Below, in pieces: positions 20,218 to 46,802 of a stretch of DNA of 64,000 nucleotides. Position 1 is the first letter of the stretch; the number at the start of each line of letters is the position of its first letter. The stretch covers positions 1 to 64,000 of IMG/VR virus record IMGVR_UViG_3300029220_000234; one strand, 5' to 3'. This DNA comes from a virus. The notes below the pieces were generated by a model. The model was given only the letters and a program-made list of their open reading frames with translations. It was not told the origin of the DNA and did not search any database. A program made the position numbers and the translations under genes.

Positions 20218-20252
20218 AAGGCAGGCTCATTTCGGGCCTGCTTGTTTTTTTA
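20218..20252 (+). terminator. Intrinsic terminator immediately upstream of the helicase RBS
   Basis: AGGCAGGCTCATTTCGGGCCTGCTT followed by GTTTTTTT. Confidence 0.5.
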
Positions 20253-20260
20253 GGTGAAAT

Positions 20261-22456
20261 ATGACAATGACAAAGAAGATTGACTCCCGGCCCTACCAAC
20301 AGGAAGCTGCTGCAGCGATTCACAGGGAGTGGGATGCCGGGAATAAGAAAACGCTGGTTGTGATGCCGACCGGAACCGGCAAAACTATTGTGTTTGCAAG
20401 CATCGTGAACGACCAGGTGGCAAAGGGCGAACACGTTTTGATTCTTGCGCACCGGGAAGAGCTTTTACAGCAGGCAAGCGACAAGCTCAAGATGGTGACG
20501 GGGCTAGAGACCGCGTTAGAGAAAGCACAAAGCTCGGCGCTCGATTCCGATAAGATGGTCGTGGTTGCCAGTGTACAGACTCTCTCTAAGCAGAATCGGT
20601 TAATGAAGTATCCGCGTGATTATTTCGGGACTATCATCATTGATGAAGCGCATCACACGGCAACCAAAACTTACAAGGGAATTCTCGAGCATTTCATCGA
20701 TGCCAAAGTGTTGGGCGTGACCGCAACACCCGACCGAAGCGACATGAAATCCCTATCTGATATCTTTGATAGTCTTGCATTTGAATATAAGCTTCCGGAT
20801 GCAATTCGGGAAGGTTATCTCTGCAAAATCAACACGAAGACGATTCCTGTCAAGGTGGATATCAGCAAAGTCCATATCAACGCCGGTGATTTCAGTGCTC
20901 AGGACCTCGGCAATGTTCTTGACCTGTATCTGGACACGATTGCGGATGCCATTGTACGAGAATGCCAGAACCGAAAGACCGTTATCTTTACGCCTCTGGT
21001 ACGAATCAGCAAAAGACTGTGCAATATCCTCAATAAGCGGAACTTCAAGACTGCAGAAGTCAATGGCGCGTCTGCGGACCGCGAGGACGTTCTGAAAGGA
21101 TTCGACAACGGCGAGTACAAGGCGCTCACGAACGCGATGCTTCTGACGGAAGGCTGGGATTGCCCGACCGTTGACTGCATCATTTGCCTGCGTCCTACCA
21201 GGAGCCGCAGCCTGTATGCGCAGATTGTGGGACGCGGAACACGTCTGTGTGAAGGGAAAAAGAATCTTCTCGTGCTGGATTTCCTGTGGCTGACAAAGAA
21301 ACATAGTCTTTGCCATCCTGCTGATATTTTCTGTGAAGACCAAGAAGTGGCACAAAAGACCACCGATATGCTGGCGGATGCGGCACTCACCGGTTCGAAT
21401 AGCCAGGAGAATTTCGGGAGTCCTGAATTGGGGCTGATTGAGGCAATCGAGGAAGCACAGACTGAGCTGGACGAGGAAAAGCGGAAAGCACTGTGTGAAC
21501 TCGAAAAGCAGGATACGATTCAGCGTAAACTCCAGGCACAGCGTCAAAAGCCGAGAGGGCTCGTTGACCCTCTGCAGTATATCTTCAGCATCGAAGCGCC
21601 GGAACTCAACGACTATCAGCCGATGTTTGAGAGTGAGAGGCAGGAGCCTTCCGATGACATCATCGATAGTATTTCGTGCTACGGCGTAAAAGGGGATGCC
21701 ATCAAATCTCAGGGCCTTGCCGCTGCAATTCTCAAACGACTCATTGCTCGCAGAGCCAGCGGAATGGCTACCCCGAAACAGATTCGGTGTCTTGAAAGTT
21801 TTGGGTTCGTCCATGTTGGGCGCTGGACAATGCAGTATGCAAGCAGTTTCCTGAACGTCATCAGTTCTCATGACTGGGAGCTTCCAAATGGGTTCGACGC
21901 ATCTACGCTGGACCCGGAAAAGAATACGGCGGACGACCTCGCCAAGCTGTATCCAGACTACAAGGAGGATGAGACGAAGAAAGCACCGCGTGGGGATGCT
22001 TTCATCTGCTGCTACTACGATGCAGGGTATAATTTAGCACGCAAGAAGGTCTGCAGCAGCGAGAAAGAAATGCTTAATATGTATTATTCGCTGTTCAACA
22101 ATTGTGAAGCAAAGTACTTCTATTATATGAAGGAAGCTGATGCCTGGATGGCAGAAAAGCAGAATCTAATTGCCAGAAAGACCGGAACACCGATTTCTGC
22201 CGCACAGCCGACTCAGGCAACACCCGCAGTACCTCCTCCCTTTGTCCCGACAGCTCCCGCCAAGAGCCACGAATATTACTGCTGCCTTGCCCGATGGGAT
22301 GGGTCCTACATTGGCTATGAAACTTACAAGAGTGAGCAGGCAGCACAGAATGCCCGAAAGCAGATTGCCCGGCGCGGTGAGACGGCTGTGTATGCCACAG
22401 TAGAGGAAGCTGAAGCGTGGGTTGACAAGCAGAAGGCCGCAAGAACTAGGAGGTAA
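20261..22456 (+). CDS. SF2 DEAD/DEAH-box helicase (type III restriction res-subunit-like core) with a roughly 300-aa C-terminal extension
   Basis: Walker A VVMPTGTGKT, DEAHH box, TATPDRSD, and motif VI QIVGRGTRL. Confidence 0.8.
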   Translation: MTMTKKIDSRPYQQEAAAAIHREWDAGNKKTLVVMPTGTGKTIVFASIVNDQVAKGEHVLILAHREELLQQASDKLKMVTGLETALEKAQSSALDSDKMVVVASVQTLSKQNRLMKYPRDYFGTIIIDEAHHTATKTYKGILEHFIDAKVLGVTATPDRSDMKSLSDIFDSLAFEYKLPDAIREGYLCKINTKTIPVKVDISKVHINAGDFSAQDLGNVLDLYLDTIADAIVRECQNRKTVIFTPLVRISKRLCNILNKRNFKTAEVNGASADREDVLKGFDNGEYKALTNAMLLTEGWDCPTVDCIICLRPTRSRSLYAQIVGRGTRLCEGKKNLLVLDFLWLTKKHSLCHPADIFCEDQEVAQKTTDMLADAALTGSNSQENFGSPELGLIEAIEEAQTELDEEKRKALCELEKQDTIQRKLQAQRQKPRGLVDPLQYIFSIEAPELNDYQPMFESERQEPSDDIIDSISCYGVKGDAIKSQGLAAAILKRLIARRASGMATPKQIRCLESFGFVHVGRWTMQYASSFLNVISSHDWELPNGFDASTLDPEKNTADDLAKLYPDYKEDETKKAPRGDAFICCYYDAGYNLARKKVCSSEKEMLNMYYSLFNNCEAKYFYYMKEADAWMAEKQNLIARKTGTPISAAQPTQATPAVPPPFVPTAPAKSHEYYCCLARWDGSYIGYETYKSEQAAQNARKQIARRGETAVYATVEEAEAWVDKQKAARTRR

Positions 22457-22460
22457 TCAT

Positions 22461-23015
22461 ATGCGTACAGACAAGACGGCAAGCCACATTTGCTACGAGC
22501 TTGACCACGATGTGCAGGAATATGCGAAACGGCTTTTAGCCAAAAAAATTCTGCACGCGGCACAGCAGGACAATGCCGTTCCGTTCCCTGATGAAACGGC
22601 AAAGAGAATTGCCGAGACGGCGGTGTTTCTGACCGAACGCCTCACGCTTTTGTATGAGGTCAGTTCTGGCTTTCGAGGCATTCGGTTCAGCGATTCCGGG
22701 AAACAACCCGCTGTTTATACTACCATGGTTCAGCGCAATGCTCCTTTGTACGATGAGCCGATGCTTGGGCGGGCCTACAACCTCGCCAGCTTCCTTGCCG
22801 CTGAAAATGCGGATATCAGAGAAGTGGTTTTGATGAAGCATGGGGTTTTGGCGGCAATTTATAATGCTGCTGCGCACATGAAAGAGCGGACTCCGGAGCC
22901 GGGGAAAATCACGGTTCAGAGCCAGCTGTTTGTGTCCACGGCGGTTGAGCTGTTCGATGGCCTTTCGGATGCGGCGACAGAAAAGAAGAACGACAGCGAT
23001 AAAAGCGCTGCCTGA
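22461..23015 (+). CDS. Hypothetical protein
   Basis: RBS AGGAGGTAATCAT-ATG. 184 aa. Confidence 0.45.
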   Translation: MRTDKTASHICYELDHDVQEYAKRLLAKKILHAAQQDNAVPFPDETAKRIAETAVFLTERLTLLYEVSSGFRGIRFSDSGKQPAVYTTMVQRNAPLYDEPMLGRAYNLASFLAAENADIREVVLMKHGVLAAIYNAAAHMKERTPEPGKITVQSQLFVSTAVELFDGLSDAATEKKNDSDKSAA

Positions 23016-23037
23016 GCTATAAATTAGGAGAATTTGT

Positions 23038-23490: not shown

Positions 23491-23594
23491 TGCTTGCAAT
23501 GGCTTGCGGGTTCCATGTAATTAAAGGTGTAATCAAAAAGAATTATCTTTTGCGAGGACTCCGTTGCTGACGGCGTTCTCGTTCTCTTTTTTTA

Positions 23595-23655
23595 CAAAGA
23601 CAAAAGGCTGCCGCCCATCATGGGCAGCAGCCTTCTTTTTTTGTTTGTATCAACC
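23595..23655. terminator. Bidirectional intrinsic terminator between convergent genes
   Basis: AAGGCTGCCGCCCATCATGGGCAGCAGCCTT flanked by A-runs on one side and T-runs on the other. Confidence 0.55.
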
Positions 23656-23693
23656 GATAGGGCAGCAAATCATCTTGCCGCATTCAGAACGAC

Positions 23694-25794: not shown

Positions 25795-26165
25795 CACTGT
25801 TTTGCCACAGTTTTGCCTTGTGCATCCGTGCAAATTGAATATTATTGTAAATATAGGATGAATCAGTGTGAGCTGCAGAGATTAGGAATTCTGCGGCTCT
25901 TTCTTATGTGGCCCCTAAAAGTCGTGATAAATGCACGCGTGCGTTCTAAAAATGTGTGCGTGCGTTTTTTGTGTATTTTCACGCATTTATCGCTCGTTAT
26001 TTGTGTGGGGTAGTGTTTTGCCATAATTTTGCCTTGTGCATCCGTGCGAATTAAATATGATAAGAAATATAAGATAAATAAGTGTGAGCCGTAGAGATTG
26101 AGTTTCTGCGGCTCCTTTCTTTTGTGGTCCCCATGCGGATGAAAATGTCTGCGTGGGGTTTTTTT
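25795..26165 (+). repeat. Two tandem roughly 210-bp units, each with TTTGCC(A/T) direct repeats, a phage-type promoter and a hairpin
   Basis: Unit 1 spans about 25795-26010 and unit 2 about 26015-26165. They share TTTTGCCTTGTGCATCCGTGC(A/G)AATT...AATA...AGTGTGAGC.G.AGAGATT....TCTGCGGCTC. The second unit ends in CCCCATGCGG...CTGCGTGGGG followed by TTTTTTTT, directly before the GIY-YIG start. Confidence 0.6.
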
Positions 26166-26170
26166 TAATT

Positions 26171-27361
26171 ATGGAATACTTGTATAAGCAATATAACAAC
26201 GAACCCGGGAAAGCTCCGACAGGAGAAAAATATATATACGTTATTACTGAAATAGAAACAGGAAAAATGTATATAGGACAAACCAGTAATTTCCACGCTC
26301 GTATGCGTTCGCATAGAACCTGCAAGTGCAACCAACATAGCGCAATTGATAGAGCTATTCAAGAAAAAGGTGCGGACGCATTCCAATATGAGATTTTAGA
26401 GTTGTGTGCTGCTGATGACGCTGATAGCAGAGAACGATATTGGATAGAAAAATCCGATTCTTGCAATGAACAAAAAGGTTTCAATACGTTTAAGGGCGGC
26501 CAAAAGAGTTTTTCAGATGAAAACTACTCTATGCTTGTAGAAATGCTTCAGCAAGGAATGACATTAAAGACTGCGTGTGACGCTATAAATACCTCTATTG
26601 CTTCTGCAAGGAGAGAATTGAAGAGGCGAGACACAAATTTGTCGGAAATCCGCTGTTCGGCAGCCGAACATAAATATCTGCGCCGCAAAAGCACTCTCGG
26701 AAAAGAAATCAATATAGCTGACGTACTGAAAATGTATCAAAATGGCATGTCATCGAAAGAAATAGCAGAGCACTATGGTATGAACTCATCCGCTTTTTAT
26801 CGCCGGTTAAAAGAAAATGGGTTGAGCGCCAGAGCAATTGCTCAGCCAAATTACGGAACAGCATCTGCTCTTTTCGACAAAGATAAAGCTATTGCAATGT
26901 GTAAAGACGGATATTCTGCCAGCGAGATAGGCGATGCTATGGGATTGCCGTATTACACAATAGAGAGGCTTCTTCGAAAGTCTGGATATTCTATATCATT
27001 GATTGCAGATGAAGAAGCAGCAGATAAAAGAAAGAAGCGAAACAAAAAACGAAGCCAAAATGGAAACTTCAATTTTGAAATGGCCGTTGATTTTTTAAGA
27101 GAAGGTTACAAGATACAAGCGATAGCTGATTTGATGGGCATATCAGATGCTCACCTAAGAACAAAGCTCAAACAAAACGGCTTTGATTTAGAAAAAACGC
27201 TTCCAATTATAGTCTGTGACGAAACGGGCGAAACGTTTCTTACAATGATAGAAGCGGCAAAAGCGTACAACGTAAGCTATACATCACTACGGAAATGTTT
27301 TGAAAAAAAGCAGGGTTACTGTGGCGGCTACCATTGGCACAAAGAAAAGCAGAATTTTTGA
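26171..27361 (+). CDS. GIY-YIG homing endonuclease with C-terminal NUMOD / HTH repeats
   Basis: The catalytic module is KYIYVITEIETGKMYIGQTSNFHARMRSH...RERYWIEK. Four HTH repeats follow (...MSSKEIAEHYGMNSSAFYRRLKENG and similar), with a C-terminal IENR-like motif. No SD is visible. The start is taken at MEYLYKQ. Confidence 0.8.
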   Translation: MEYLYKQYNNEPGKAPTGEKYIYVITEIETGKMYIGQTSNFHARMRSHRTCKCNQHSAIDRAIQEKGADAFQYEILELCAADDADSRERYWIEKSDSCNEQKGFNTFKGGQKSFSDENYSMLVEMLQQGMTLKTACDAINTSIASARRELKRRDTNLSEIRCSAAEHKYLRRKSTLGKEINIADVLKMYQNGMSSKEIAEHYGMNSSAFYRRLKENGLSARAIAQPNYGTASALFDKDKAIAMCKDGYSASEIGDAMGLPYYTIERLLRKSGYSISLIADEEAADKRKKRNKKRSQNGNFNFEMAVDFLREGYKIQAIADLMGISDAHLRTKLKQNGFDLEKTLPIIVCDETGETFLTMIEAAKAYNVSYTSLRKCFEKKQGYCGGYHWHKEKQNF

Positions 27362-27408
27362 CTCCAATGCAAAATACAGCATCGGATTTTTTATTGGGAG
27401 ATATAGAC

Positions 27409-28395
27409 ATGGCAAAGAATGAGAATCTGCACAAGGCAAAGGACGCGAAGAACGACGAGTTTTATACCAGAATCGAGGATGTTGCAGAGGAACTACGGCA
27501 CTACAAAAAGCATTTCGCGGGCAAGGTCGTATTCTGCAACTGCGATGACCCGACATGGTCCGCTTTCTGGCGGTATTTCCACCTGAACTTTGCAGAACTT
27601 GGCTTAAAGAAGCTGATTTCCACGCACTACGACCGTACAGAACCCACCTATAAAATGGAGTACGAGGGCGGAGATGACAACAATGTAGAAGTCGGAGTCA
27701 AGACTCCGCTGGAAGGCAACGGTGATTTCCGGAACAAAGAATGCCTTGACCTGCTGGATGAGTGCGACACCGTAGTCACAAATCCTCCATTCAGCTTAGC
27801 TAGAGCCTATGTCCAGTATCTACGTGAGCACAATAAGCAATTCGTTATTATTGGGGACCTCAACTGGATTACATACAAAGAAATTTTCCCGATGCTGAAA
27901 GATAATGAAATCTGGCTGGGATATTCTTCTGTAAAAGAGTTCACGCAACCTGACGGGACAATCAAGAAGTTCGGGAATAAATTGTGGTATACCAACCTCG
28001 ACATCCAGAAACGTCACGAGAAGCTGATTCTCTGGCAGCGGTACTATGACGATGACGGGAATCCGCTGCCGGATGCAGAGGAGCGCTACCCCCACTATGA
28101 TAACTACGACGCTATCAACGTGGATAGGGTCGCCGATATTCCGATGGATTATCAAGGTGTAATGGGTGTGCCGATTACATTCTTGAATGGTTACAATCCG
28201 GAGCAGTTTGAAATTGTGGAGTTAAGTAGATATCTTAACCATGAAGGAATGTCTAAGAAATTCGTTGAAACGTATTACAAACAAGGCGGAAAAGGCCAAA
28301 TTAAAGAAGGTCATCCAGACCTTTGCTATTATGATGACAAAGGTAAAGCAATCGTTCCATACATGCGAGTCCTTATAAAGAAAACAATTGCTTGA
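27409..28395 (+). CDS. Putative DNA N6-adenine (or N4-cytosine) methyltransferase
   Basis: TNPPF catalytic motif IV. Start at MAKNENL after a GGGAG RBS. Adjacent to the homing endonuclease. Confidence 0.55.
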   Translation: MAKNENLHKAKDAKNDEFYTRIEDVAEELRHYKKHFAGKVVFCNCDDPTWSAFWRYFHLNFAELGLKKLISTHYDRTEPTYKMEYEGGDDNNVEVGVKTPLEGNGDFRNKECLDLLDECDTVVTNPPFSLARAYVQYLREHNKQFVIIGDLNWITYKEIFPMLKDNEIWLGYSSVKEFTQPDGTIKKFGNKLWYTNLDIQKRHEKLILWQRYYDDDGNPLPDAEERYPHYDNYDAINVDRVADIPMDYQGVMGVPITFLNGYNPEQFEIVELSRYLNHEGMSKKFVETYYKQGGKGQIKEGHPDLCYYDDKGKAIVPYMRVLIKKTIA

Positions 28396-28448
28396 AATTG
28401 AATGTAATGTGCTTATTCTTTTTGTAAATAATGAGAGGAGAAAAAGCA

Positions 28449-29231
28449 ATGAAACTGATTGAATATCCCACGATGAACGCGGATATGTATTCACGCGTTA
28501 CATCAAATTATTCGTACTCTCCTTTTGAGTGTGTTACAACACCGTGGAGAAGCTATCCAAGCACACCTATTAAAGTACCTCATCCCGATACATGTCCATG
28601 CTGCAATAAAGTAATGTCGGATGATTTGAGCCCGGTAATGGCAATTAACAACATCAACATCGGAGAAGAAAAATACGAAAAATGCAAAGTAGTATCAGTT
28701 TATAGATGTGCATCGTGTAATTCGCTATTTGCAATTTGGAGTGAACATAAAGCAATCGAGCAAGACGAAACAACATTGGAAAATTTATCATATACATGCA
28801 AAATACTTGCCATGTTTCCTTTTGAAAAAGTTACAGTATTTACTCAAAACATTACCAATTTGTCTGCGGAATTTGTATCTGTATTTAATCAAACTGAAAT
28901 CGCAGAAGCGCAAAATTTGAATGATATTTGTGGTATGGGGTACAGGAGAGCATTAGAGTTTTTGGTGGATGCTTACATACGGAAAAATAGACCCGCAGAA
29001 ACCATTGATGCGAGCCTCCCTCTCAGCAAAAAAATACGCGATTATATCGATAACGAGCAAATTAAAACATTAGCACAAAAATCGGCGTGGCTTGGAAATG
29101 ATGCTACGCACATTGTAAACAATCATCCAGATAGAAGTGTAAAAGATGTCAAAAAATTTATAAAAGCTATAACAGCAATAATTGATGCCGAATTTGCTTG
29201 TGAAGACGCAAGTACCATAGAAAGGAATTGA
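28449..29231 (+). CDS. Cys-rich N-terminal domain plus a DUF4145-like C-terminal domain
   Basis: Start after GAGAGGAGAAAAAGCA. C-terminus ...ICGMGYRRALEFLVDAYI...AWLGNDATH resembles DUF4145, a domain common in defence-associated proteins. Confidence 0.45.
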   Translation: MKLIEYPTMNADMYSRVTSNYSYSPFECVTTPWRSYPSTPIKVPHPDTCPCCNKVMSDDLSPVMAINNINIGEEKYEKCKVVSVYRCASCNSLFAIWSEHKAIEQDETTLENLSYTCKILAMFPFEKVTVFTQNITNLSAEFVSVFNQTEIAEAQNLNDICGMGYRRALEFLVDAYIRKNRPAETIDASLPLSKKIRDYIDNEQIKTLAQKSAWLGNDATHIVNNHPDRSVKDVKKFIKAITAIIDAEFACEDASTIERN

Positions 29232-29237
29232 ACAACA

Positions 29238-30374
29238 ATGAAAATCACAGAAACGAAAATCAAGGTATCTGACCTTGTCGAGAACTACAAGGACAATGGT
29301 GATGGCGGAGTCTTTGGCTACAACGACCGCCTTACGATTCGCCCGTCTTTCCAGCGCGAGTTCATTTATGGAGAAAAACAGCGTGCAGCCGTCATCGATT
29401 CCGTAATGAACGGATTCCCTCTGAACGTCATGTACTGGTCTAAGACCGGGACTGACACATACGAGGTTCTTGATGGGCAGCAGCGTACCGTCTCTATTGC
29501 TCAGTACATCAACAAGGATTTTCCTATCAAAATCAATGGCAACGATAAGTTCTTCCAAAACTTGACCAACGAGGAAAAGCAGACAATTCTGGACTATGAA
29601 CTGACGGTTTATGTCTGCGAAGGTACTGAGGCAGAGAAGCTGGAATGGTTTAAGCGCATCAACATCGCTGGTGAAGTTCTGACTCCGCAGGAACTGCTGA
29701 ATGCTACTTATACAGGACCGTGGCTGGCCGATGCCAAGAACTACTTCTCGAAACGCAACTGTGTTGCTGCGAAGATGGCTGACGGATACCTGAAAGGCAA
29801 CCCGATTCGGCAGGAGTTGCTGGAAAAGGCACTGGCGTGGATTGCTGACCGTGACGGTCTGGAATCCGGGCAGATGTACATGGCGGTTCACCAGCATGAC
29901 GAGGACGCCAATGACCTCTGGCTTTACTTCCAGTCTGTCATCAACTGGGCGAAGATGTTGTTCCCGACGAAGCGGAAGGGAATTACTGATACGCAAGCAT
30001 GGGGTTTGCTCTATAACCAGTATCATACTAAGCAGTACAACAGCAACGCTCTGGAAGCTGATATCAAGAAACTCGTGCTGGATGATGATGTAACCAAGAA
30101 GGCAGGCATCATCCCGTTCATCCTCTCTGACCGTACTTGGCGTGACGAAAAGCATTTGTCCCTGCGTGCGTTTACCGAGTCTCAGAAGCTCCGTGCCTAC
30201 GAGCGGCAGGGTCACAAGTGTCCGCTGTGCGTTGCGAACGGCATCAACACCGAGTATGCCTATGAGGATATGGAAGGTGACCACATCATTCCTTGGAGCA
30301 AGGGCGGACATACCACGGATGACAATTTGCAGATGCTGTGCAAGAAGTGCAATTCGGCGAAGGCGGATAAGTAA
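29238..30374 (+). CDS. DUF262 (ParB/GmrSD-N-like, DGQQR motif) fused to an HNH endonuclease
   Basis: N-terminal FQREFIY...VLDGQQRTVSI. C-terminal CPLC...GDHIIPWSKGGHTTDDNLQMLCKKCNSAK HNH motif. Confidence 0.75.
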   Translation: MKITETKIKVSDLVENYKDNGDGGVFGYNDRLTIRPSFQREFIYGEKQRAAVIDSVMNGFPLNVMYWSKTGTDTYEVLDGQQRTVSIAQYINKDFPIKINGNDKFFQNLTNEEKQTILDYELTVYVCEGTEAEKLEWFKRINIAGEVLTPQELLNATYTGPWLADAKNYFSKRNCVAAKMADGYLKGNPIRQELLEKALAWIADRDGLESGQMYMAVHQHDEDANDLWLYFQSVINWAKMLFPTKRKGITDTQAWGLLYNQYHTKQYNSNALEADIKKLVLDDDVTKKAGIIPFILSDRTWRDEKHLSLRAFTESQKLRAYERQGHKCPLCVANGINTEYAYEDMEGDHIIPWSKGGHTTDDNLQMLCKKCNSAKADK

Positions 30375-30393
30375 AGTTGATAGGGAGGATGTG

Positions 30394-30855
30394 ATGAAAT
30401 ATCGCTATTTTATGTGCGGCATGTTCACTGGCACAGATGGAAACAGATACGGCATCAGCATCCCGTCTCCGTTCGTGAGAGATTCAGAATCGGAAGCGAT
30501 GAAAGACGAGGTTTTTGGCTATCGGTTCCTGACCATCGATTCGGCAGAGCCTCTGCTGGTCGTCTTTGCAAACGAGCACTTTGAGCCCATGAACAACGAC
30601 AAAATGCAGGTAAGATGCTGGGTAGACAAGAACGTTGTCGGGATTTATACCTTTGAAGAATTCAAAAAAAATGGCGGGTATATTCGACAACTGAAGCCGA
30701 GCAGCAGGGGAAAGTATGTAACTGATGAATCTGACTTTGTTGATGTTGACAAGTCGTTTGCTGATATATTCCCAAACATGGAAAGGCGCAAACTGTGTTA
30801 TATTGACGATGAAGCATACAAGATTAGCGAGGTAGAAGACAATGCTCAATACTAA
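30394..30855 (+). CDS. Hypothetical protein
   Basis: RBS GGGAGGATGTG-ATG. 153 aa. Confidence 0.45.
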   Translation: MKYRYFMCGMFTGTDGNRYGISIPSPFVRDSESEAMKDEVFGYRFLTIDSAEPLLVVFANEHFEPMNNDKMQVRCWVDKNVVGIYTFEEFKKNGGYIRQLKPSSRGKYVTDESDFVDVDKSFADIFPNMERRKLCYIDDEAYKISEVEDNAQY

Positions 30856-31309
30856 GAAAACCACACGCAAGAGCAATCACGGAAGTGAATCAACTTACTC
30901 CGGCTCTGTGACTGCCGTCACATCCAAGACTATTGTGGTCTTCATCCCGGCACTCGATGTCGAGGTGGATGTCCAGCGTAACCCCGACACATCCGCCCAG
31001 AACGGTTCTGTCCCCGAAGTGGGAGATATTGCTACTGTGCAGGTTACTCTCCGAGATGGTGACACTATTACCATTGCCGCCACCTTCGTACCGCAGCAAG
31101 ACATTGGTAAGGATACTTCAACCGATAACGACGATTTACTTTTACCGGATGACGATTGGAATGGCAACACAGCTCACACACAGCGACAATATAGCCACCA
31201 CGCAAACCGGCTCAATCCAAATAATAGTGCGTATACAGCTGCAATGAACAATCATGCAAACCAGTGCAATCCTAACAGCCCCAACTATCGTGGGAATCGA
31301 GGCAAATGA
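30842..31309 (+). CDS. Hypothetical protein with a C-terminal N.HANQ.NPN..NY repeat
   Basis: RBS GAGGTAGAAGACA-ATG. C-terminal Asn/His/Pro-rich tandem motif. Confidence 0.4.
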   Translation: MLNTKKTTRKSNHGSESTYSGSVTAVTSKTIVVFIPALDVEVDVQRNPDTSAQNGSVPEVGDIATVQVTLRDGDTITIAATFVPQQDIGKDTSTDNDDLLLPDDDWNGNTAHTQRQYSHHANRLNPNNSAYTAAMNNHANQCNPNSPNYRGNRGK

Positions 31310-31376
31310 GACCAAAGATTCCGCTAAATAAAAATAGACGACAATAATCAAATAAGATAAAATTGGAGGAAGCCCT

Positions 31377-31733
31377 ATGGTAGTTAAAGGAGAATCTTGT
31401 TTTGTTTCTATGAAATTGAGTATGAAATCCACTGATACTACGAGCGAAGGAATCATTATGCCGGATTTTCTTTGCTCTAGTGCAGACTTTTCACTTCCCT
31501 ACAATCCAGAGATTATCGACAAGTTTGTCTATGACGATAAACTAATTTCTCACATGATTCACGAATTGTATAGTCTCGTGAAGTGTCTTCGTCCTGATAA
31601 ATTGGACGGCAAAGAAAAATGTCTGGTGCTGGATATTGACGTTGATGATGAATTCTATGATTTCTATGATGTATACGTAACTATGAACAAAGACACTTGT
31701 ACCTACAGGGTCGAAGAAGATGATGACTGCTAA
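31377..31733 (+). CDS. Hypothetical acidic protein
   Basis: RBS GGAGGAAGCCCT-ATG. Confidence 0.4.
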   Translation: MVVKGESCFVSMKLSMKSTDTTSEGIIMPDFLCSSADFSLPYNPEIIDKFVYDDKLISHMIHELYSLVKCLRPDKLDGKEKCLVLDIDVDDEFYDFYDVYVTMNKDTCTYRVEEDDDC

Positions 31734-31921
31734 TGTGCTGCGCTCTCTCATCATACGATACAACGTTCTGAATGGCGCTTGTGGCGCTGCTTGAGATTAA
31801 GCTGACAGGTACCGGAGCTTATCTCTAAACCCTTGAAAAAAGAAGTGGAACGCAACAATATAGAAAATTATTAGAATTTTTTGAGAAATCCGACCTAGCC
31901 GGATTCCACGCTACTGGAGCA

Positions 31922-31955
31922 ATTGACCAGTCTTGCGAGCTGCGTAGAATTAAAA
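31922..31955 (+). promoter_or_regulatory. Phage-type promoter (TTGACC ... CTTGCGAGCTGCG ... TAGAATTA)
   Basis: Consensus-like. Upstream of the 31997 gene. Confidence 0.45.
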
Positions 31956-31996
31956 GTGCAAGAAGAAACCCAAAACACACAAAGGAGAATGCCAAC

Positions 31997-32336: not shown

Positions 32337-32378
32337 ACCCTGCTCGCAGTAAAATGCGGGCGGGGTCTTTTTTTGTTT
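32337..32378 (+). terminator. Intrinsic terminator
   Basis: CCCTGCTCGCAGTAAAATGCGGGCGGGG followed by TCTTTTTTTG. Confidence 0.5.
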
Positions 32379-32647
32379 GACAAGGTGTGCGAGATGGCTA
32401 TGATGATTATTGTATCAAAGATACCACTTACCTTCATTTTTAACATTCCGCTTTTGCAAGGACAGCCTCATTCCGAGGTTGTCCTTTTTCTTTTGCGTAA
32501 CTCTCCACGGAAACACTTGTCCCCGTGTTTAACATAAATCCGCAAGCTGCTCTAAATTTTGGAACAGCTTAATCAATTCAAATCGTACGAAAGTACGAAA
32601 ACGCTACGCAAACATTCTGCGTAGACTGTAAAAAAGGAGTAATAATT

Positions 32648-32947: not shown

Positions 32948-33454
32948 GGCGACGGTGACACCGAAGACCTTGACCATCCGGTTCTCGTGCGCGTCCCTGA
33001 CTGCGTGCGTGCCGAAGGGGACAAGAGTCTCCGCAAGGTGTACTTCGACAAGGAAGTTGCGAGTGCAACTGGCTTCAACACGGAGGAAGACCAGTCCAAG
33101 CTCAACGCATCCACCGTGGATGAGTACACCCGCAGCATGAAGAAGTGATTCTTCATGTTTCCCTAAGCATTGCCTTTAAGCTTTGTTTCTAGCTGCAGTA
33201 TGAATCAAGGCTGAATTGGCCCGGCTTGAAAGTCGTTCACCTTTTGGTGAGCGGCTTTTTCTTTTTGCCTGTTTGCGTAGCTGCGCTTTTTTCGTCGCCG
33301 AAACCGTAGGTGGCGGGATGCGTAGCTGCCGACATGGCTTGACCTGATGTGCGAGACTCGTACAATCAGATTTGTACGACAGATATCAAACACAAAATAG
33401 GACAAAATAGGATTTACATTGAGCTGTTCAGTGGCCTTATGGCTGTTGGATAGC

Positions 33455-33488
33455 TTTTTCTTTTGTGCGAGTTGCGTACAATAAAAAC
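33455..33488 (+). promoter_or_regulatory. Phage-type promoter (TTTGTGCGAGTTGCG ... TACAATAA) now feeding into the IscB element
   Basis: Consensus match. The GGAGG at 33492-33496 was probably the original RBS of the lipoprotein gene at 35124. Confidence 0.5.
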
Positions 33489-33504
33489 AAACGGAGGAAA
33501 TTAC

Positions 33505-33810
33505 CGTCAATAACCCACGACTAAAGTCGCGGGCTTGCTCCGGCAAGTCCGCACTTTAGAAGTGTCCGCAAGGATATGTTGACTACCCTTTGCGCATTAA
33601 GTTGCGCCCCGTTATAAGCGAATAGACAGTTACCGTACGGTGTAAATCCTAGCCGTGCGCTCTAAGGCAACACATCACGTAAAGCTGAGGCAAAGCCGAC
33701 AGGTGTGGCTGCATCAAGCCGTTTATAACCTTGGGGAAGGATTTTAACCCTCTTCGGAGGAGCGAGCAGCTTCTTTTTAGCTGCTAATTTACAGAAAGGA
33801 GCATGGCATC
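33505..33810 (+). ncRNA. Putative IscB omega-RNA scaffold
   Basis: 306-nt non-coding, GC-rich, hairpin-dense region between the left end and the iscB RBS (CTTGC-TCCG-GCAAG, CTCTTCGGAG, AGCAGCTTCTTTTTAGCTGCT). This is the position where IscB omega-RNAs are encoded. Confidence 0.5.
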
Positions 33811-35073
33811 ATGCAATATGTGTATGTACTCAACAGGCACGGCGAGCCTATGATGCCGTGCTCACCCGGAAAGGCTCGTTTGCTATTAAAACAGCAAAAA
33901 GCATGCGTTGTAAAGCGCACACCGTTTACAATCAAGCTCCTGTGCGGAAGCGTGGGATACAAACAACCTATCACTTTGGGCGTTGACGCAGGCAGCAAGC
34001 ATGTTGGTTTGTCTGCATCTACCGAGAAGCGCGAACTCTACCGTGAGGAATTTACTCCTCGCAGCGATGTAGCAGAATTGCTTTCTACGCGCAAACAAAA
34101 CCGCCGTTCGAGACGCAACCGTAAGACCCGTTACCGCGCACCGAGATTTGATAATCGCGTCCATAGCAAGCATAAAGGTTGGCTGGCACCTTCGGTTGAG
34201 GTAAAAATTCAAGAGCATATTACCGTCATCAAGCATATCTGCAAAATTTTGCCTATCTCTCTTGTAAGAGTAGAAACAGCAGAGTTTGACACGCAGCGCT
34301 TGAAGGCAATGCTTGCTGGAAAGCCTCTTCCTGTAGGAACAGACTATCAGCTTGGCGAGATGTACGACGAATACAATGTCCGTCAGTATGTCTTGAAGCG
34401 TGACCATTACACTTGTCAATGCTGTGGTGCTCATAATACTGCCGAAAAAGTAGTCAAGCTGCATGTACATCATCTCGAAAGCCGTAAGACTGGCGGCAAC
34501 GCTCCAAGCAACCTTGTTACTTTGTGTACCACATGCCACAAGAACCTTCACAAAGGAAGAGTGACCCTTGACGGCAAGGAACGCGGCAAGCCTCTTCGTG
34601 ATGCTGCTTTCATGGGAATCATGCGCAAAACCTTAATGACACGTTTGAAAGAAGAGCTGCCTATCCCTGTTCAGAGGACTTATGGCTATATCACTAAAAT
34701 GCGCCGTGAGCAAAATGACATCAAGAAGAGTCATACAAACGATGCTCGCTGTATTAGCAAGCATCCACTGGCTGAGCCTTGCAGCGTTTGCTACCGTACA
34801 AAGGCTATCAGACACCATAATCGGCAAACCCATAAAGCAAATTTCTCTAAAGGTGGCTACCGGAAAAGAAGTCAAACACCTTATATCGTTGAAGGCTACC
34901 GCTTGTGGGACAAGGTTCTCTACAAAGGGCAAGAATGCTTTGTATCCGGCCGCCGCTCTTCGGGAAGTTTTGCACTTAAAAAGCTGGATGGTACGAGCAT
35001 CTCTAAAGGCGTGACATTCAAAAAGCTGCGACTTTTAGAGCCCGCAGCAAATTATTTAATTGAAAGGATGTGA
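33811..35073 (+). CDS. iscB: IscB (OMEGA RNA-guided nuclease; RuvC-HNH-RuvC with PLMP N-terminus)
   Basis: PLMP-type N-terminus HGEPMMPCSPGKARLLLKQQKA. RuvC-I ITLGVDAGSKHVGLS. Zn finger DHYTCQCCG. HNH HHLESRKTGGNAPSNLVTLCTTCHKNLH. Arg-rich bridge helix. 420 aa. Confidence 0.85.
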   Translation: MQYVYVLNRHGEPMMPCSPGKARLLLKQQKACVVKRTPFTIKLLCGSVGYKQPITLGVDAGSKHVGLSASTEKRELYREEFTPRSDVAELLSTRKQNRRSRRNRKTRYRAPRFDNRVHSKHKGWLAPSVEVKIQEHITVIKHICKILPISLVRVETAEFDTQRLKAMLAGKPLPVGTDYQLGEMYDEYNVRQYVLKRDHYTCQCCGAHNTAEKVVKLHVHHLESRKTGGNAPSNLVTLCTTCHKNLHKGRVTLDGKERGKPLRDAAFMGIMRKTLMTRLKEELPIPVQRTYGYITKMRREQNDIKKSHTNDARCISKHPLAEPCSVCYRTKAIRHHNRQTHKANFSKGGYRKRSQTPYIVEGYRLWDKVLYKGQECFVSGRRSSGSFALKKLDGTSISKGVTFKKLRLLEPAANYLIERM

Positions 35074-37190: not shown

Positions 37191-37304
37191 AGCGGAACAC
37201 CAACGACAACAACCATCAAGGTTGTACAAGATTATGCGCTCATCCGCAAAATGCGGGTGGGCGTTCTTTTTTTGCAAAAAAACAAAAATAAAACATAGCA
37301 AAAA

Positions 37305-37398
37305 ACCTTGCACATCTGTGCGAATCGGATATAATAACCCTAATAAGATAAGAATTGTGCCCTGGCGGTTTCTGGATTGGATGCTGCCGGGGCTTTTT
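37305..37398 (+). promoter_or_regulatory. Phage-type promoter plus leader terminator hairpin ahead of the helicase gene
   Basis: CCTTGCACATCTGTGCGAATCGGATATAAT, then about 25 nt, then GCCCTGGCGG...CTGCCGGGGC plus TTTTTGTTTTT, then the RBS CAAGGAG. Confidence 0.55.
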
Positions 37399-37413
37399 GT
37401 TTTTCAAGGAGAT

Positions 37414-41161: not shown

Positions 41162-41271
41162 TTTCAAAATGGCTTGAATCTTTGAGGTTGTATATATGTT
41201 GCAAAGTTCAGATACAACCCCAAAAATTCCGATAAATCGCATAAAAGATTGTTGCAAGGAGGACAAAAACC

Positions 41272-41837: not shown

Positions 41838-41851
41838 GGATTGGAGTAGCC

Positions 41852-42517: not shown

Positions 42518-42547
42518 GCATTTCTTAATTTGAAAAAGGAGAAAGTA

Positions 42548-42664: not shown

Positions 42665-42665
42665 A

Positions 42666-42878
42666 ATGCGGCAAAACATTAAAATTCTACTGGAAACCAT
42701 CTGGTATCTGGTTCTGCCGGTGTTTATTTTTGTACTTAACATTAGATACTGGCATGGATATCTTGCGAATCCTGGCTGGTCCTTGACCCATCCGTCATAT
42801 GTTGTTCTTGGATTTGTCTTGAGCGCTGCGTTGTGCTTTGAGATTGTATATATCGACATCAAGTTTGGGGAAAAATAG
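42666..42878 (+). CDS. Small two-TM membrane protein (holin-like)
   Basis: MRQNIKILLETIWYLVLPVFIFVL...VVLGFVLSAALCFEIVYI. Confidence 0.4.
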   Translation: MRQNIKILLETIWYLVLPVFIFVLNIRYWHGYLANPGWSLTHPSYVVLGFVLSAALCFEIVYIDIKFGEK

Positions 42879-42964
42879 CGCTTGCTATATTATTCGATTT
42901 CGGTAAAATATAAAATGTAAACAGATACTAAGAACCAGTAGGATTCACAATCTGTATGTTTAGC

Positions 42965-43003
42965 GGACTTATCCCATCGTGGGGTAGGTCCGCTTTTTTT
43001 GTT
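42965..43003 (+). terminator. Intrinsic terminator directly before the MBL lipoprotein RBS
   Basis: GCGGACTTATCCCATCGTGGGGTAGGTCCGC followed by TTTTTTTG. Confidence 0.5.
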
Positions 43004-43019
43004 GAAAGGAGAAGAATTC

Positions 43020-44180: not shown

Positions 44181-44194
44181 AAATTGCACCTGAT

Positions 44195-44340
44195 TTACTC
44201 GACAAGCTGTGCGAACTGACTACAATAAAAAATGTACGATAGATAACAAACATCGAAAAAGGCATTCTGCCTTTCGTACAATTCACAATTCTGCAGACAT
44301 AAGGCAGACTCACCGTCTTGGTGGGCCTGCCTTTTTTGTT
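44195..44340 (+). promoter_or_regulatory. Promoter-leader-terminator module A
   Basis: GTGCGAA(44209), TACAATAA(44221), GTACGATAGATA(44234), TCGTACAATTCACAATTCTGC(44274), hairpin AGGCAGACTCACCGTCTTGGTGGGCCTGCCT plus TTTTTTG, then the RBS. Confidence 0.6.
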
Positions 44341-44370
44341 TGCGCAACTATAAAAAAGGAGTATAACGCA

Positions 44371-45111
44371 ATGTTCAAAATTCACAATGACAAAGTCTAT
44401 TTCGTCGCCGAGACCCCCGATATCAACAAAGTTATCGAAATCTTCCTACCCAAGGATGGCCATGGCACCATTATGAATTCACACGAAATTCGTGTGGACC
44501 TGTGCCGTGCCGTCATTCACATGGAGAAGAAGGGTATCCGTGTCTTGAAGGTCCGCAACATTGAGGATACCAACAAGGCAAACATCGACGTCTGGCACAT
44601 GCCGGAATATCAGGAGGCTGCAGAGTCTCCCACGAGCGATGTGGTCGATGCCTGCATCGAGTCCAACTTTGATTCCGGCGCAACGTTCAACCTGCCCTGC
44701 AAAGCAAACCGCAAGACTCGCGAAGTCTTCGACATTGAGTGCGGCGCTTGCCCTAATGACGATGACACGTTCAGCTATGCAGAGGTTAAAGTTAATGGAT
44801 GGCACTATCCGGTCAACAACATCACCGACATTATGGAGGAAAACGATGTTGACAGTGCGTTGGATGAGCTCTACCGCATCCAGCAGAAAGGCGAGTATTG
44901 GGAAGCATACGAGGGCAAATCGCTCACGGATGCCATCCACGAATTCCGCTGGGCTATCCTGAAGGATGCCATTCAGAAGCGCGGACATGAGGCTGTTGCT
45001 GATTTTGTCGGAACCGACATTTCCAGTGACGCTTATGACCGCGTGATGGACGAAACCGAAACCCAGATGCCGAACGAAGAATTCGAGCGCTTCTGGGAAA
45101 AGTACATCTAA
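44371..45111 (+). CDS. Hypothetical protein
   Basis: RBS AAAAAGGAGTATAACGCA-ATG. The ORF-track N-terminus is translated module A. Confidence 0.5.
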   Translation: MFKIHNDKVYFVAETPDINKVIEIFLPKDGHGTIMNSHEIRVDLCRAVIHMEKKGIRVLKVRNIEDTNKANIDVWHMPEYQEAAESPTSDVVDACIESNFDSGATFNLPCKANRKTREVFDIECGACPNDDDTFSYAEVKVNGWHYPVNNITDIMEENDVDSALDELYRIQQKGEYWEAYEGKSLTDAIHEFRWAILKDAIQKRGHEAVADFVGTDISSDAYDRVMDETETQMPNEEFERFWEKYI

Positions 45112-45146
45112 GAAACATCTCACACACAGAAAGGGAGCATATTACT

Positions 45147-45473
45147 ATGGCTATTTTCAACACCAACGATTTCCTTCGCAAAACCTTCAGCAAGACCATT
45201 TTTGGTACTGCTGCACTTCGTCCGGAAGCGGTTTGTGCAGACGGCTTCACCCTGTCTATTCAGGCAAGCAGCATGCACTACTGTATACCGAGTGAGGACC
45301 TGTCGGACGGCGATTACTCTAAGGTCGAACTCAGCTACTTGTCTGAGGAGGTCGAAGAGTTTCTGCCGTTTGCTGAAGACGACGAGGCTCCGCTGGCTAC
45401 GGTCTACGGGTATGTGCCTGTAGAAATCGTGGATGCGGTTCTTGCCAAGCACGGCGGCATCGTCAACGTTTAA
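45147..45473 (+). CDS. Hypothetical protein, paralog of 4863..5213
   Basis: Shared motif AVCADGFTLSIQASSMHYC ... VPVEIVDAVLAKHGGI. Confidence 0.5.
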   Translation: MAIFNTNDFLRKTFSKTIFGTAALRPEAVCADGFTLSIQASSMHYCIPSEDLSDGDYSKVELSYLSEEVEEFLPFAEDDEAPLATVYGYVPVEIVDAVLAKHGGIVNV

Positions 45474-45488
45474 GAAGGAGGGATACCA

Positions 45489-45830
45489 ATGTTAAAGACT
45501 TTTACTGTCGTTGCCAATGAAGTTATTGGCTTATCCGCAACGGAATGCACGCTGATGCAGTTCAACTACAATCCGGAACAGATTCATGACCCCGAAACCG
45601 TTCTGCGCAGTGCCGTTAAGGACTATCTCCTGACGGATGAAGGCAAGCGTCAGTTGGAACTCAACTGTGGCTGCTGGAACTGGGGCGATGTCGATGACAT
45701 TCCCGACTCGTTCTTTTTGAACTATGGCCTAGCTAAAGTTGCTCCGCTTGATGTGGATATTGTCGTTGACCGCAACGAAAGCTTTACGGATGGCTGCGAC
45801 GAGGACGAGGAGGAGTTATGCAATGAGTAA
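45489..45830 (+). CDS. Hypothetical acidic protein
   Basis: RBS AAGGAGGGATACCA-ATG. Confidence 0.45.
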   Translation: MLKTFTVVANEVIGLSATECTLMQFNYNPEQIHDPETVLRSAVKDYLLTDEGKRQLELNCGCWNWGDVDDIPDSFFLNYGLAKVAPLDVDIVVDRNESFTDGCDEDEEELCNE

Positions 45831-45987
45831 GTTGTACATTAACGGCGAAGTTGTGCAAAACGCTATTGGCTGGCGCTTGACCGCAGTTCCCGAACTGGGT
45901 TGGGCTATTTTGCTGAGTGATGGCACGCAGAGCTTTATCCCGAAAACAGAAATCAAATTCATGTACGTTGAAAAGGGAGATGAATAA
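45823..45987 (+). CDS. Small hypothetical protein
   Basis: ATG overlapping the upstream stop. 54 aa. Confidence 0.35.
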   Translation: MSKLYINGEVVQNAIGWRLTAVPELGWAILLSDGTQSFIPKTEIKFMYVEKGDE

Positions 45988-45988
45988 C

Positions 45989-46729
45989 ATGCGCATTTGT
46001 AGTGTAAGCAATGTGGTCATAGAAATCACGCGCCGGTGCAATATGTGTTGTGCGCACTGCCTGCGCGGAGATGCCGAAAATGTCGATATTCAGGAAAGAT
46101 ACATAGATGCTTTTCTTGACAGCTTTGAGAAAGGCGCTTGTATCAGCTATATCGTTTTCAGCGGTGGAGAGATTTCTCTGAATATCCCGGCAATTCGGTA
46201 TATTCTGAAAGCCGTTAAAGAGCGAAACATCTCGGTTGGCAGCTTCTATATGGTCACCAATGGCAAGGCTGTCGATAAGATGGCGGACCTTGCTTTGGCG
46301 AGTCTTGAATGGTGGAACTACTGTTGCGACAAAGACGACGACATGTGCGGTCTTTGTATCAGCAGCGACAACTTCCACGAGAAAATCCCGCATGAAAGCG
46401 AAGGCTTCTTTAGTGGCTTGAAATACAGCCACGACGATAAGGTGACGGACTTTCGCTTTCATCCCCTTATCAACGAAGGCCGCGCCGAAACCATCAATTC
46501 GAGTCTCTACAGAAAATGCGAACCATGCGTGGAGAAGCTCGAATACGAAATCAATGGAGATGACGGTATCGATTTCTGGTGCAGCGAGATGTACCTGAAC
46601 GCTGTTGGTGATGTTGTCTCCGGCTGTAACTGGTCTTATGAGTCTCAGAAAAAGTACCGTATCGGGAACGTGATGGACAAAAACTGGCTGGATAATATCT
46701 CCGACAGCGAATGGTGCATTGCGAACTAA
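45989..46729 (+). CDS. Radical SAM domain protein
   Basis: CNMCCAHC is a CxxxCxxC [4Fe-4S] motif near the N-terminus. VFSGGEISL is a GGE SAM-binding motif. The Cys-rich C-terminus is SPASM-like. RBS AAAAGGGAGATGAATAAC-ATG. Confidence 0.65.
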   Translation: MRICSVSNVVIEITRRCNMCCAHCLRGDAENVDIQERYIDAFLDSFEKGACISYIVFSGGEISLNIPAIRYILKAVKERNISVGSFYMVTNGKAVDKMADLALASLEWWNYCCDKDDDMCGLCISSDNFHEKIPHESEGFFSGLKYSHDDKVTDFRFHPLINEGRAETINSSLYRKCEPCVEKLEYEINGDDGIDFWCSEMYLNAVGDVVSGCNWSYESQKKYRIGNVMDKNWLDNISDSEWCIAN

Positions 46730-46747
46730 AAAATATCATCAACAAAT

Positions 46748-46790
46748 AGCCACCGCCTCCTTAACGGGAACGGTGGCCTTTTTTCAAAAA
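46748..46790 (+). terminator. Intrinsic terminator directly before the next RBS
   Basis: GCCACCGCCTCCTTAACGGGAACGGTGGC followed by CTTTTTTC. Confidence 0.5.
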
Positions 46791-46802
46791 GGAGACCAAA
46801 AA

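Follow-up and report, generated by a model that had tools for sequence, protein, structure and literature searches.

The DNA examined here is a window of 64,000 nt, i.e., positions 1 to 64,000 of the IMG/VR virus record IMGVR_UViG_3300029220_000234, and its subject is a recurrent arrangement in which a terminator-like hairpin stands shortly before the start codon of a gene. The window is an accessory region that carries nucleases, helicases, an EcoRI-type methylase, GmrSD-like proteins, a zeta-toxin-like kinase, IscB, TnpB and many ORFans. As close relatives (93–98% protein-level identity) it has IMG/VR contigs as long as 389 kb and, from the human gut, a metagenome-assembled genome labelled "Clostridiales bacterium". 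As to cultured relatives, no megablast match was found in the phage collection, and the sole tblastn matches concerned a 60-amino-acid stretch of Staphylococcus jumbo phages.

Terminator-like hairpins directly upstream of six genes

A preliminary description of the window had noted strong terminator hairpins 5–20 nt before the start codons of six genes, i.e., those for an SF2 helicase, a UvrD-like helicase, an MBL lipoprotein, an "ATP-grasp-like" protein, a GIY-YIG protein and a Zn-ribbon protein. All six are in the sequence at about the places it named, and T-tracts and shuffle tests agree on them (Table 1). Each is a compact GC-rich structure with a stem of 9–16 bp and a folding free energy (ΔG) of –17 to –27 kcal/mol (z-scores of –4.4 to –7.3 against 200 dinucleotide shuffles), and at none of the six sites did any shuffle (0/200) fold as well. 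Directly 3′ of every stem lies a T-tract, with 6–8 T in the next 8 nt. The six-site observation is confirmed as real and above chance. The proposed spacing was found at five sites (4–18 nt from T-tract to start codon) but not at the Zn-ribbon site, where the distance is 40 nt.

Beyond the T-tracts follow an AGGAG-type ribosome-binding site (RBS) and then a long open reading frame (ORF). The exception is the GIY-YIG gene, whose hairpin had also been said to abut the RBS: no Shine–Dalgarno sequence lies between T-tract and ATG in the window, although one relative carries such a sequence. Pfam matches supported the SF2 helicase, the UvrD-like helicase, the MBL protein, the GIY-YIG protein (with several HTH domains) and the Zn-ribbon protein (DUF4379); the "ATP-grasp-like" label was not upheld, as the gene in question (ATG at 46803) had no Pfam match. 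The gap of only 4–40 nt from T-tract to start codon is too short for a promoter, as the preliminary description had argued, and therefore the genes must be transcribed through the hairpins. Its claim that these genes depend on read-through is borne out by this geometry, and it is well supported that the downstream genes are made only by polymerase that has read through.

A shared predicted promoter places the hairpins inside transcription units

A repeat search and a position weight matrix (PWM) revealed ~27 copies of one promoter in the window, with the consensus TTGc-N6-tGTGCGAa-N6-TAnAAT. It is of the sigma-70/sigma-A type, with an invariant TGCGA block in its 16-nt spacer; all but one of the copies lie on the coding strand, and a shuffled window gives zero. 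Readings of the motif as a second overlapping promoter, a sporulation-sigma –10 element or a Gram-positive –16 TRTG element were rejected on account of misfitting spacings (judged by eye). The spacer block of P42882, which is degenerate in the window, is nearer the consensus in the relatives L003 and L007 (ATACGAAC).

When genes, promoters and terminators were placed on one map, the strong hairpins could be sorted into three classes. Those of class I (n = 12) are true unit ends, situated 6–79 nt past a stop codon with a promoter next, recognisable 10–110 nt downstream of these real operon ends. Class II (n = 17) comprises leader terminators that start 23–74 nt past the –10 element, i.e., at about +16 to +67 of the transcript, and end 13–37 nt before the start codon (4 nt before the ATG for the second leader terminator of the GIY-YIG gene). 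Hairpins of class III (n = 5) lie between two cistrons with no promoter nearby. The hairpins of the UvrD-like, MBL and GIY-YIG genes (37359, 42962 and 26129) belong to class II, being located 23–67 nt downstream of P37308, P42882 and P26034, and about 14 other leaders, including those of class A described below, carry leader terminators as well. The remaining three (20220, 46749 and, on the minus strand, 3528) are of class III, in units opened by a class II leader. That the hairpins are not simple operon ends had been argued before; the predicted promoters upstream of three of the six are stronger ground for this conclusion than the one originally given.

Terminators also stand in series. P19892 is followed by T19953, an ORF of 66 amino acids, T20220 and the SF2 helicase gene, and a PWM scan found no consensus promoter between P19892 and the helicase. 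Likewise, P44199 is followed by T44301, five genes, T46749 and the 46803 gene, and P5370 (minus strand) by T5286, a gene, T4805, a Zn-ribbon gene, T3528 and a second Zn-ribbon gene, while T26086 and T26129 behind P26034 place the GIY-YIG gene after two tandem leader terminators. At five leaders, a terminator is already present upstream of the promoter (upstream/leader terminator: 19843/19953, 32337/32458, 33228/33421, 37236/37359 and 52822/52952). Blocking read-in can therefore not be the whole purpose of the leader terminator, which must act on the promoter's own transcripts.

Class II and class I terminators were alike in median ΔG (–19.9 vs. –21.4 kcal/mol), stem length (13 vs. 13 bp) and T-tract (7/8 T in both; Mann–Whitney p 0.23–0.79). 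A T-tract follows all 17 leader hairpins, with 5–8 T at those other than the six named sites. Over the whole window, terminator scans returned 39, 34 and 32 sites vs. 21, 21 and 20 in shuffles (standard deviation about 4), a ~1.7-fold excess, and 33 of the 41 strong compact hairpins with a T-tract were located in intergenic sequence, which makes up 15.6% of the window (binomial p = 6.5e-20). Among window paralogues, the terminator stem showed double compensatory changes in 10 of 13 pairs; among 37 clade-wide copies, 8 pairs had double changes, one pair being G-C in 19 copies and A-U in 17. Hairpin 19953 shows one compensatory C-G to U-A change in relatives. Hairpin 46749 has three different inner stems among relatives at 85–97% identity and is missing in lineages at 73–76% amino-acid identity, in which other coding sequence immediately precedes the gene. 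The hairpins share the strand of their flanking genes and lie downstream of (predicted) consensus promoters. They are best explained as predicted intrinsic (Rho-independent) terminators situated inside transcription units, not at unit ends.

Two further observations concern the promoter family. At 52822–52883, 57175–57237 and 32337–32404, the T-tract of an operon-end terminator passes without a break into the –35 TTG of the promoter that follows (TTTTTTGTTTGC...), so that bases are shared; a T-tract fused to the –35 in this way could double as an UP-like element. Moreover, three orphan promoter–terminator units (23494–23643, 25818–25967 and 32377–32494), each with one or two terminators, have no ORF on their strand; they may represent genes for small RNAs or what is left of deleted cassettes. 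The P25818 unit is a tandem duplicate of the P26034 unit (85% identity) and lies just upstream of the GIY-YIG gene.

A structured leader RNA behind the promoter

About ten of the promoters are followed by a leader of shared structure, referred to as class A (the "modules" of the preliminary description), which starts at about +1 with UGUACGAUAGAUAcCAU. In 33 of the 37 copies, its 5′ element of ~45 nt, beginning at about +2, forms a stem P1 (GUACG/CGUAC) around two hairpins, i.e., the small P1a and P2, which is variable and covaries. The stems are followed by the conserved, single-stranded AAUUCACAAUUCUG and then by the terminator. The structured leader of ~45 nt together with a 14-nt single-stranded motif is kept across more than 60 diverged copies. 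A different, short type of leader was found at P37308, P26034 and P25818, where (T)ATAAGATAA is followed by 4–6 nt, GTG and then the hairpin.

A covariance model (R1), built from 37 clade-wide class-A copies, recovered seven canonical copies in the window at 75–99 bits and four diverged ones (Table 1). One of the latter is the leader of the MBL gene, which had been listed among the sites "beyond the modules" and is instead a member of the module family. In the clade set, a terminator follows all but 2 of ~165 unique class-A promoters, and those two are truncated copies; further class-A elements that seemed to have no terminator proved to be artefacts of start-codon calling. Rfam yielded no leader match at the gathering threshold in the whole window, nor one with an E below 1 in the 51.1–62 kb region.

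In all class-A promoters (e.g., 52856–52903), the leader start TGTACGAt (about +1 to +8) repeats the spacer block tGTGCGAa (about –24 to –18) almost exactly, in the same orientation and at a distance of 25 bp, and the same DNA-binding protein might bind both.

Table 1. Promoters, leaders and terminators predicted in the window. Fold, segment used in the shuffle test; ΔG in kcal/mol; bits, covariance-model score; PWM, position-weight-matrix score; gap, distance from the end of the T-tract to the ATG.
Feature	Position	Strand	Details
Site 6 (Zn-ribbon), intercistronic terminator	3484–3528	–	Fold 3531–3484; ΔG –27.0, z –7.3; third in series after P5370(–); gap to ATG 3443, 40 nt
Intercistronic terminator	4778–4805	–	ΔG –14.8; 48 nt before first Zn-ribbon (DUF4379) gene, 4729–3569
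P5370 and class-A-like leader	5250–5370	–	PWM 24.2; diverged class-A copy 5337–5250, 31.6 bits; terminator 5286–5259; heads Zn-ribbon unit
P19892	19892–19919	+	Consensus promoter (TTGCTAATCTGTGCGAATTGCGTACAAT); PWM 44.9; kept in relatives; heads SF2 helicase unit
Leader terminator	19953–19989	+	33 nt past –10; ΔG –18.4; ends 24 nt before 66-amino-acid ORF (20004–20204)
Site 1 (SF2 helicase), intercistronic terminator	20219–20252	+	Fold 20216–20252; ΔG –17.0, z –5.0; 15 nt past small-ORF stop; AGGTGA RBS; gap to ATG 20261, 9 nt
Orphan unit P25818	25818–25967	+	Hairpins 25870–25899 and 25929–25967; no ORF downstream
P26034	26034–26061	+	Consensus promoter; PWM 46.1; before GIY-YIG/HTH gene
First leader terminator of P26034	26086–26123	+	24 nt past –10; ΔG –19.0
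Site 5 (GIY-YIG), second leader terminator	26129–26166	+	Fold 26126–26167; ΔG –21.1, z –5.4; T8 tract; gap to ATG 26171 (GIY-YIG and HTH domains), 4 nt
Orphan: promoter, diverged class-A leader, terminator	32377–32494	+	Class-A copy 32410–32494, 25.5 bits; no same-strand ORF downstream
Promoter, diverged class-A leader, terminator	33339–33463	+	Class-A copy 33372–33463, 21.4 bits; T-tract overlapped by P33455 (drives IscB guide RNA)
End-of-unit terminator	37236–37274	+	After RlaP-family gene; ΔG –21.7; P37308 next
P37308	37308–37335	+	TTGCAC-16-TATAAT; GTGCGA spacer block; PWM 37.2
Site 2 (UvrD-like), leader terminator	37359–37404	+	Fold 37356–37404; ΔG –24.9, z –5.4; 23 nt past –10; AAGGAGA RBS; gap to ATG 37420 (UvrD-like helicase), 15 nt
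P42882	42882–42909	+	PWM 21.5; degenerate spacer block (ATTCGA)
Site 3, MBL leader	42915–43004	+	Diverged class-A copy, 32.6 bits (E about 5e-4); terminator 42962–43001; fold 42960–43002; ΔG –25.5, z –7.1; gap to ATG 43020 (MBL lipoprotein), 18 nt
P44199 and canonical class-A leader	44199–44341	+	Terminator 44301–44333; 99.1 bits; heads 46803-gene unit
Site 4 (46803 gene), intercistronic terminator	46749–46785	+	Fold 46746–46786; ΔG –17.0, z –4.4; 19 nt past radical-SAM stop; AAAGGAGA RBS; gap to ATG 46803, 18 nt
Promoter, canonical class-A leader, terminator	51150–51282	+	75.2 bits
Promoter, canonical class-A leader, terminator	52856–52994	+	95.4 bits; end-of-unit terminator 52822–52847 just upstream
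Promoter, canonical class-A leader, terminator	55247–55384	+	87.7 bits
Promoter, canonical class-A leader, terminator	57580–57723	+	85.0 bits
Promoter, canonical class-A leader, terminator	60285–60422	+	95.9 bits
Promoter, canonical class-A leader, terminator	61701–61843	+	78.9 bits

Candidate signals and regulators of read-through

Full-strength terminators behind strong promoters, terminators in series and a structured, conserved leader lead us to favour an antitermination signal at the start of the unit. That terminators inside the units are read through by virtue of such unit-start signals is a tentative reading, to which we give just short of an even chance. On this reading, signals just after the promoter would confer read-through at the start of each unit. 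A first candidate is the ~45-nt structured leader RNA with the single-stranded AAUUCACAAUUCUG, which would act like put or nut, and a second is a TAnnAT at about +3 to +8, which may hold sigma-bound polymerase for the loading of a Q/AlpA-like factor. Once modified there, polymerase would get past the leader terminator and then the later intercistronic terminators. Transcription arriving from upstream would stop at the hairpin and only polymerase from a cassette's own promoter would get through, the outcome being gated, mutually insulated accessory-gene cassettes. The preliminary description had gone as far as proposing a genome-wide antitermination or attenuation regime: the dependence on read-through stands, while an active regime of the N/Q or put kind is what we infer as plausible, at about the same probability as leaky attenuation. 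In its most specific form, i.e., distributed antitermination that gates dozens of cassettes in a huge uncultured phage-like element of gut Clostridia by means of a shared promoter, a cis leader signal (put-like RNA and/or sigma-pause element) and a full-strength terminator before the RBS, the proposal is rather unlikely.

The TAnnAT at about +3 to +8 occurred in 147 of 165 class-A, 24 of 68 other leader-terminator and 4 of 109 plain promoters (Fisher p = 3e-8). This –10-like hexamer is TACGAT in class A and TAAGAT or TAGGAT in the short leaders.

A number of findings weigh against antitermination. The TACGAT doubles as the 5′ half of stem P1, and its likeness to a –10 element may be incidental; the TAnnAT cases outside class A stem from only two or three independent lineages. 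The TGCGA block (about –23 to –19) shows no variation among 203 leader-terminator promoters, nor among 139 plain ones; it does not tell the two kinds apart and is probably a general promoter feature rather than a loading site, and the GTGCGA block was set aside as an analogue of the Q-binding element since it is equally invariant in promoters without a terminator. No alternative antiterminator pairing was visible in the leaders. Among the ~70 window proteins, no Q, AlpA, NusG-paralogue or sigma family was recognised (Pfam for all, PHROGs for 10), and no N family was among the Pfam and PHROG matches, although the scans were not aimed at N and boxA/boxB were not searched; these negatives cover the window, of a genome that may reach 389 kb. 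The sole recognised regulators in the window were a Mor-family activator and HTH proteins. Finally, in the window, intercistronic terminators numbered 5 in leader-terminator units vs. 0 in plain units, but clade-wide (313 unique units from 1.3 Mb of relatives) the counts were 63 per 626 kb vs. 14 per 150 kb, i.e., ~0.1 per kb in both. Some of the internal terminators in "plain" units were artefacts and at least two were real, and the equal clade-wide densities lend no support to the link between leader terminators and internal terminators that the window had suggested.

The Mor-family protein (14960–15310, plus strand; phage Mu middle/late activator) also matches PHROG 532, "late transcriptional activator". 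As the sole recognisable phage-type transcription factor in the window, it is a candidate for the reader of the conserved promoter.

Mosaic relatives and alternative explanations

The relatives are strongly mosaic, and the breakpoints of their indels fall on promoters and terminators. Breakpoint 25841|31960 is a promoter-to-promoter junction by which 6 kb was removed, while 32379|33261 and 35999|37248 join the T-tracts of terminators; a further breakpoint is 36062|37303. Segment 32380–33260 is missing in relatives. In relatives whose sequence farther upstream is unrelated, the UvrD-like gene still has its promoter, hairpin and RBS. A distant UvrD-like homologue (L034, 37% identity) has no such hairpin or promoter, and the architecture is therefore specific to the clade. 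The block 25842–31959, which is missing in L007 and L018, holds the GIY-YIG/HTH gene, an EcoRI-type adenine methylase, DUF4145, a GmrSD-HNH nuclease and ORFans; the junction inside promoters (25841|31960) points to promoter-to-promoter recombination.

Such mosaicism, with breakpoints at promoters and terminators and with a UvrD-like gene that keeps its promoter, hairpin and RBS next to changing upstream sequence, would be expected if the hairpins were constitutive leaky attenuators or insulators in recombining cassettes, with a fixed read-through fraction and no dedicated antiterminator. Low expression would then be set for nucleases, helicases and possibly toxic ORFans, spill-in from neighbours would be damped, and the conserved promoter and hairpin sequences would also provide the homology through which cassettes are exchanged, as happens with T4-type PeSLs, which are experimentally supported promoter/terminator cassettes in hyperplastic regions (PMC2839356, PMC4122927). 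Insulation fits junctions 44199, 51150, 55247, 60285 and 61701, where the leader terminator is the only terminator between neighbours, but it would be redundant at the five leaders with a terminator already upstream. The failure to find an antiterminator gene among the scanned window proteins and the presence of internal terminators in plain units too are in line with a fixed leak. However, the leader terminators look as strong as true operon ends, and with up to three or four in series, hardly any expression of the distal genes would remain if every one of them were efficient. A fixed leak also leaves the conserved structured leader RNA and the 14-nt motif unexplained, and the PeSL stem-loop overlaps or precedes its promoter and thus lies outside the transcript. 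On balance, leaky attenuation, the main alternative and one that accounts for the same anatomy, is possible but somewhat doubtful.

It is improbable that the hairpins act mainly post-transcriptionally or apart from termination, either as 5′-proximal mRNA stabilisers or processing signals, or with the ~55–110 nt transcripts constituting a multicopy small-RNA family. The class-A RNA is conserved and structured, other RNA devices (an HDV-like ribozyme at 10583–10652 and HEARO RNAs) occur between genes, and three promoter–terminator units (P23494, P25818 and P32377) are ORF-less, but the latter can also be explained as remnants of cassette deletion. Stabilisers or RNase sites would moreover need no T-tract, whereas all 17 leader hairpins have one; the hairpins begin 16–67 nt from the predicted 5′ end rather than at it; and no antisense partners or targets of the conserved leader motifs were found in the window. 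Less probable still is that the hairpins are ordinary terminators of upstream genes, followed by unrecognised promoters. Hairpins 20220 and 46749 do occupy the usual gene-end position, 15–19 nt past the upstream stop, but a promoter precedes three of the six hairpins, and the real operon ends of the element have a recognisable promoter 10–110 nt downstream. In the gap of 4–40 nt from T-tract to start codon, part of which is taken by the RBS, hidden promoters are practically excluded because of the lack of space.

Comparison with known systems

Promoter-proximal terminators that are bypassed by antitermination belong to textbook regulation, and to our knowledge each known antitermination case controls one or two promoters per phage. 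The layout described here recurs at at least 15 promoters in 64 kb, and more than 160 unique class-A promoter–leader copies were collected from relatives. In the rpsU-dnaG-rpoD operon, a terminator before dnaG, after one cistron and before the next RBS, lowers distal expression. Such internal attenuators resemble sites 20220, 46749 and 3528, but they are isolated cases, whereas those in the window are recurrent and combined with leader terminators. The closest systems are Q/AlpA, put, conAn and the PeSL; the element is no demonstrated member of any of them.

Antitermination of the Q/AlpA type relies on a factor whose DNA site is situated between –35 and –10 and which engages polymerase while sigma keeps it paused at a –10-like hexamer close to +1 (in PalpB, CACGAT at –1 to +5), with an intrinsic terminator downstream (PMC9371919). 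The element shares with this type (PMC9371919, PMC9388147, PMC6606751) a sigma-70-type promoter, a conserved element in the –35/–10 spacer, a –10-like hexamer at about +1 to +8 and an intrinsic terminator shortly downstream that has to be bypassed (here 17 predicted leader terminators). It differs in that no Q or AlpA homologue was found among the ~70 window proteins, in that the spacer element occurs in all promoters, terminator-less ones included, in having many such promoters where Q and AlpA have one each, in its Firmicute-type host and in a terminator that abuts the RBS.

The put RNA of HK022 is a ~70-nt RNA of two stem-loops just downstream of PL that acts in cis without a protein (PMC9378689). 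The class-A leaders, that of the MBL site included, resemble it in being structured RNAs directly after the promoter, with a –10-like sequence and with terminators next. In contrast to put, however, the class-A element is joined directly to its first terminator and occurs dozens of times in a genome instead of the two of HK022, and sites 37359, 26129 and 20220 have no class-A element; no Rfam or sequence relationship was found, although no direct comparison with put was made. In conAn, a bipartite antitermination system of Gram-positive conjugative plasmids, one large RNA and one protein head a single, very long operon (PMC8191782). Common to conAn/LoaP and the element are an origin in Firmicute mobile elements and, for the element putatively, a leader RNA by which polymerase can pass several intrinsic terminators in an operon as well as terminators that curb stray transcription and let genes of one operon be expressed to different degrees, but the window holds many short units, each with its own leader. 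No ConAn1 or LoaP homologue turned up, none having been tested for.

A PeSL has its stem-loop ahead of the promoter, inside it or overlapping it, and this stem-loop halts transcription that arrives from upstream (PMC2839356). T4-type PeSLs (PMC2839356, PMC4122927) and the element have in common a repeated sigma-70-like promoter with a stem-loop and a Shine–Dalgarno sequence beside accessory genes and ORFans in hyperplastic regions, and recombination between the motifs accounts for indels of close relatives. Unlike in a PeSL, the hairpin lies 16–67 nt inside the promoter's own transcript, often beside a separate upstream terminator, and the phage lineage and host phylum are other ones.

If read-through is regulated, the arrangement would be a new way for very large phages to time and insulate their accessory, anti-defence and mobile genes and would provide a new leader RNA family to study; distributed antitermination, if true, would be the first regulon of the Q or put kind to span many promoters, with the first put-like RNA outside lambdoid phages. 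If instead the leak is fixed, the element would be a clear second example, in another phage lineage and host phylum, of promoter/terminator cassettes that tune expression and drive gene shuffling. With either outcome, a predicted terminator in these genomes cannot be taken to mark an operon boundary.

Other features of the window

A complete IscB element is present at 33455–35073 (plus strand), with a HEARO RNA at 33506–33748 (79 bits, against a gathering score of 83) and an RRXRR/HNH IscB gene at 33811–35073. The –35 of its promoter P33455 is replaced by the T-tract of terminator 33421–33456. Segment 33500–35122, which includes IscB, is missing from most relatives, indicating a recent insertion. 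Another HEARO/IscB guide-RNA match (5875–6135, plus strand, 91 bits) has no adjacent IscB, and the next ORF (6193–7836) is of the SPFH/flotillin family. The HDV-like ribozyme at 10583–10652 (plus strand; Rfam HDV-F-prausnitzii, 60.4 bits, gathering score 44) lies between a VWA-domain gene (8862–10556) and an ORF at 10676, and would cut the polycistronic transcript in this gap.

The two Zn-ribbon genes (2695–4681, minus strand) consist of tandem repeats of 222 and 231 nt in five to seven copies at 61–73% identity, each repeat encoding a DUF4379 treble-clef zinc finger. A 90-nt stretch (59724–59813) at the 3′ end of gene 59434–59838 recurs at 61560–61649, before P61701, with 89% identity, and the genes behind P60285 and P61701 (60448–61521 and 61866–62945; 357 and 359 amino acids) are paralogues; both are traces of cassette duplication and recombination.

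Finally, a plain consensus promoter and a long leader precede both a TnpB/Cas12f-like fragment with a TNB domain (17729–18175, plus strand) and the gene for a basic protein of 443 amino acids (49649–50980, plus strand) that is TnpB-like by its N-terminal sequence only and has no Pfam match. The leader of P49503, ~118 nt long, might encode a guide RNA.

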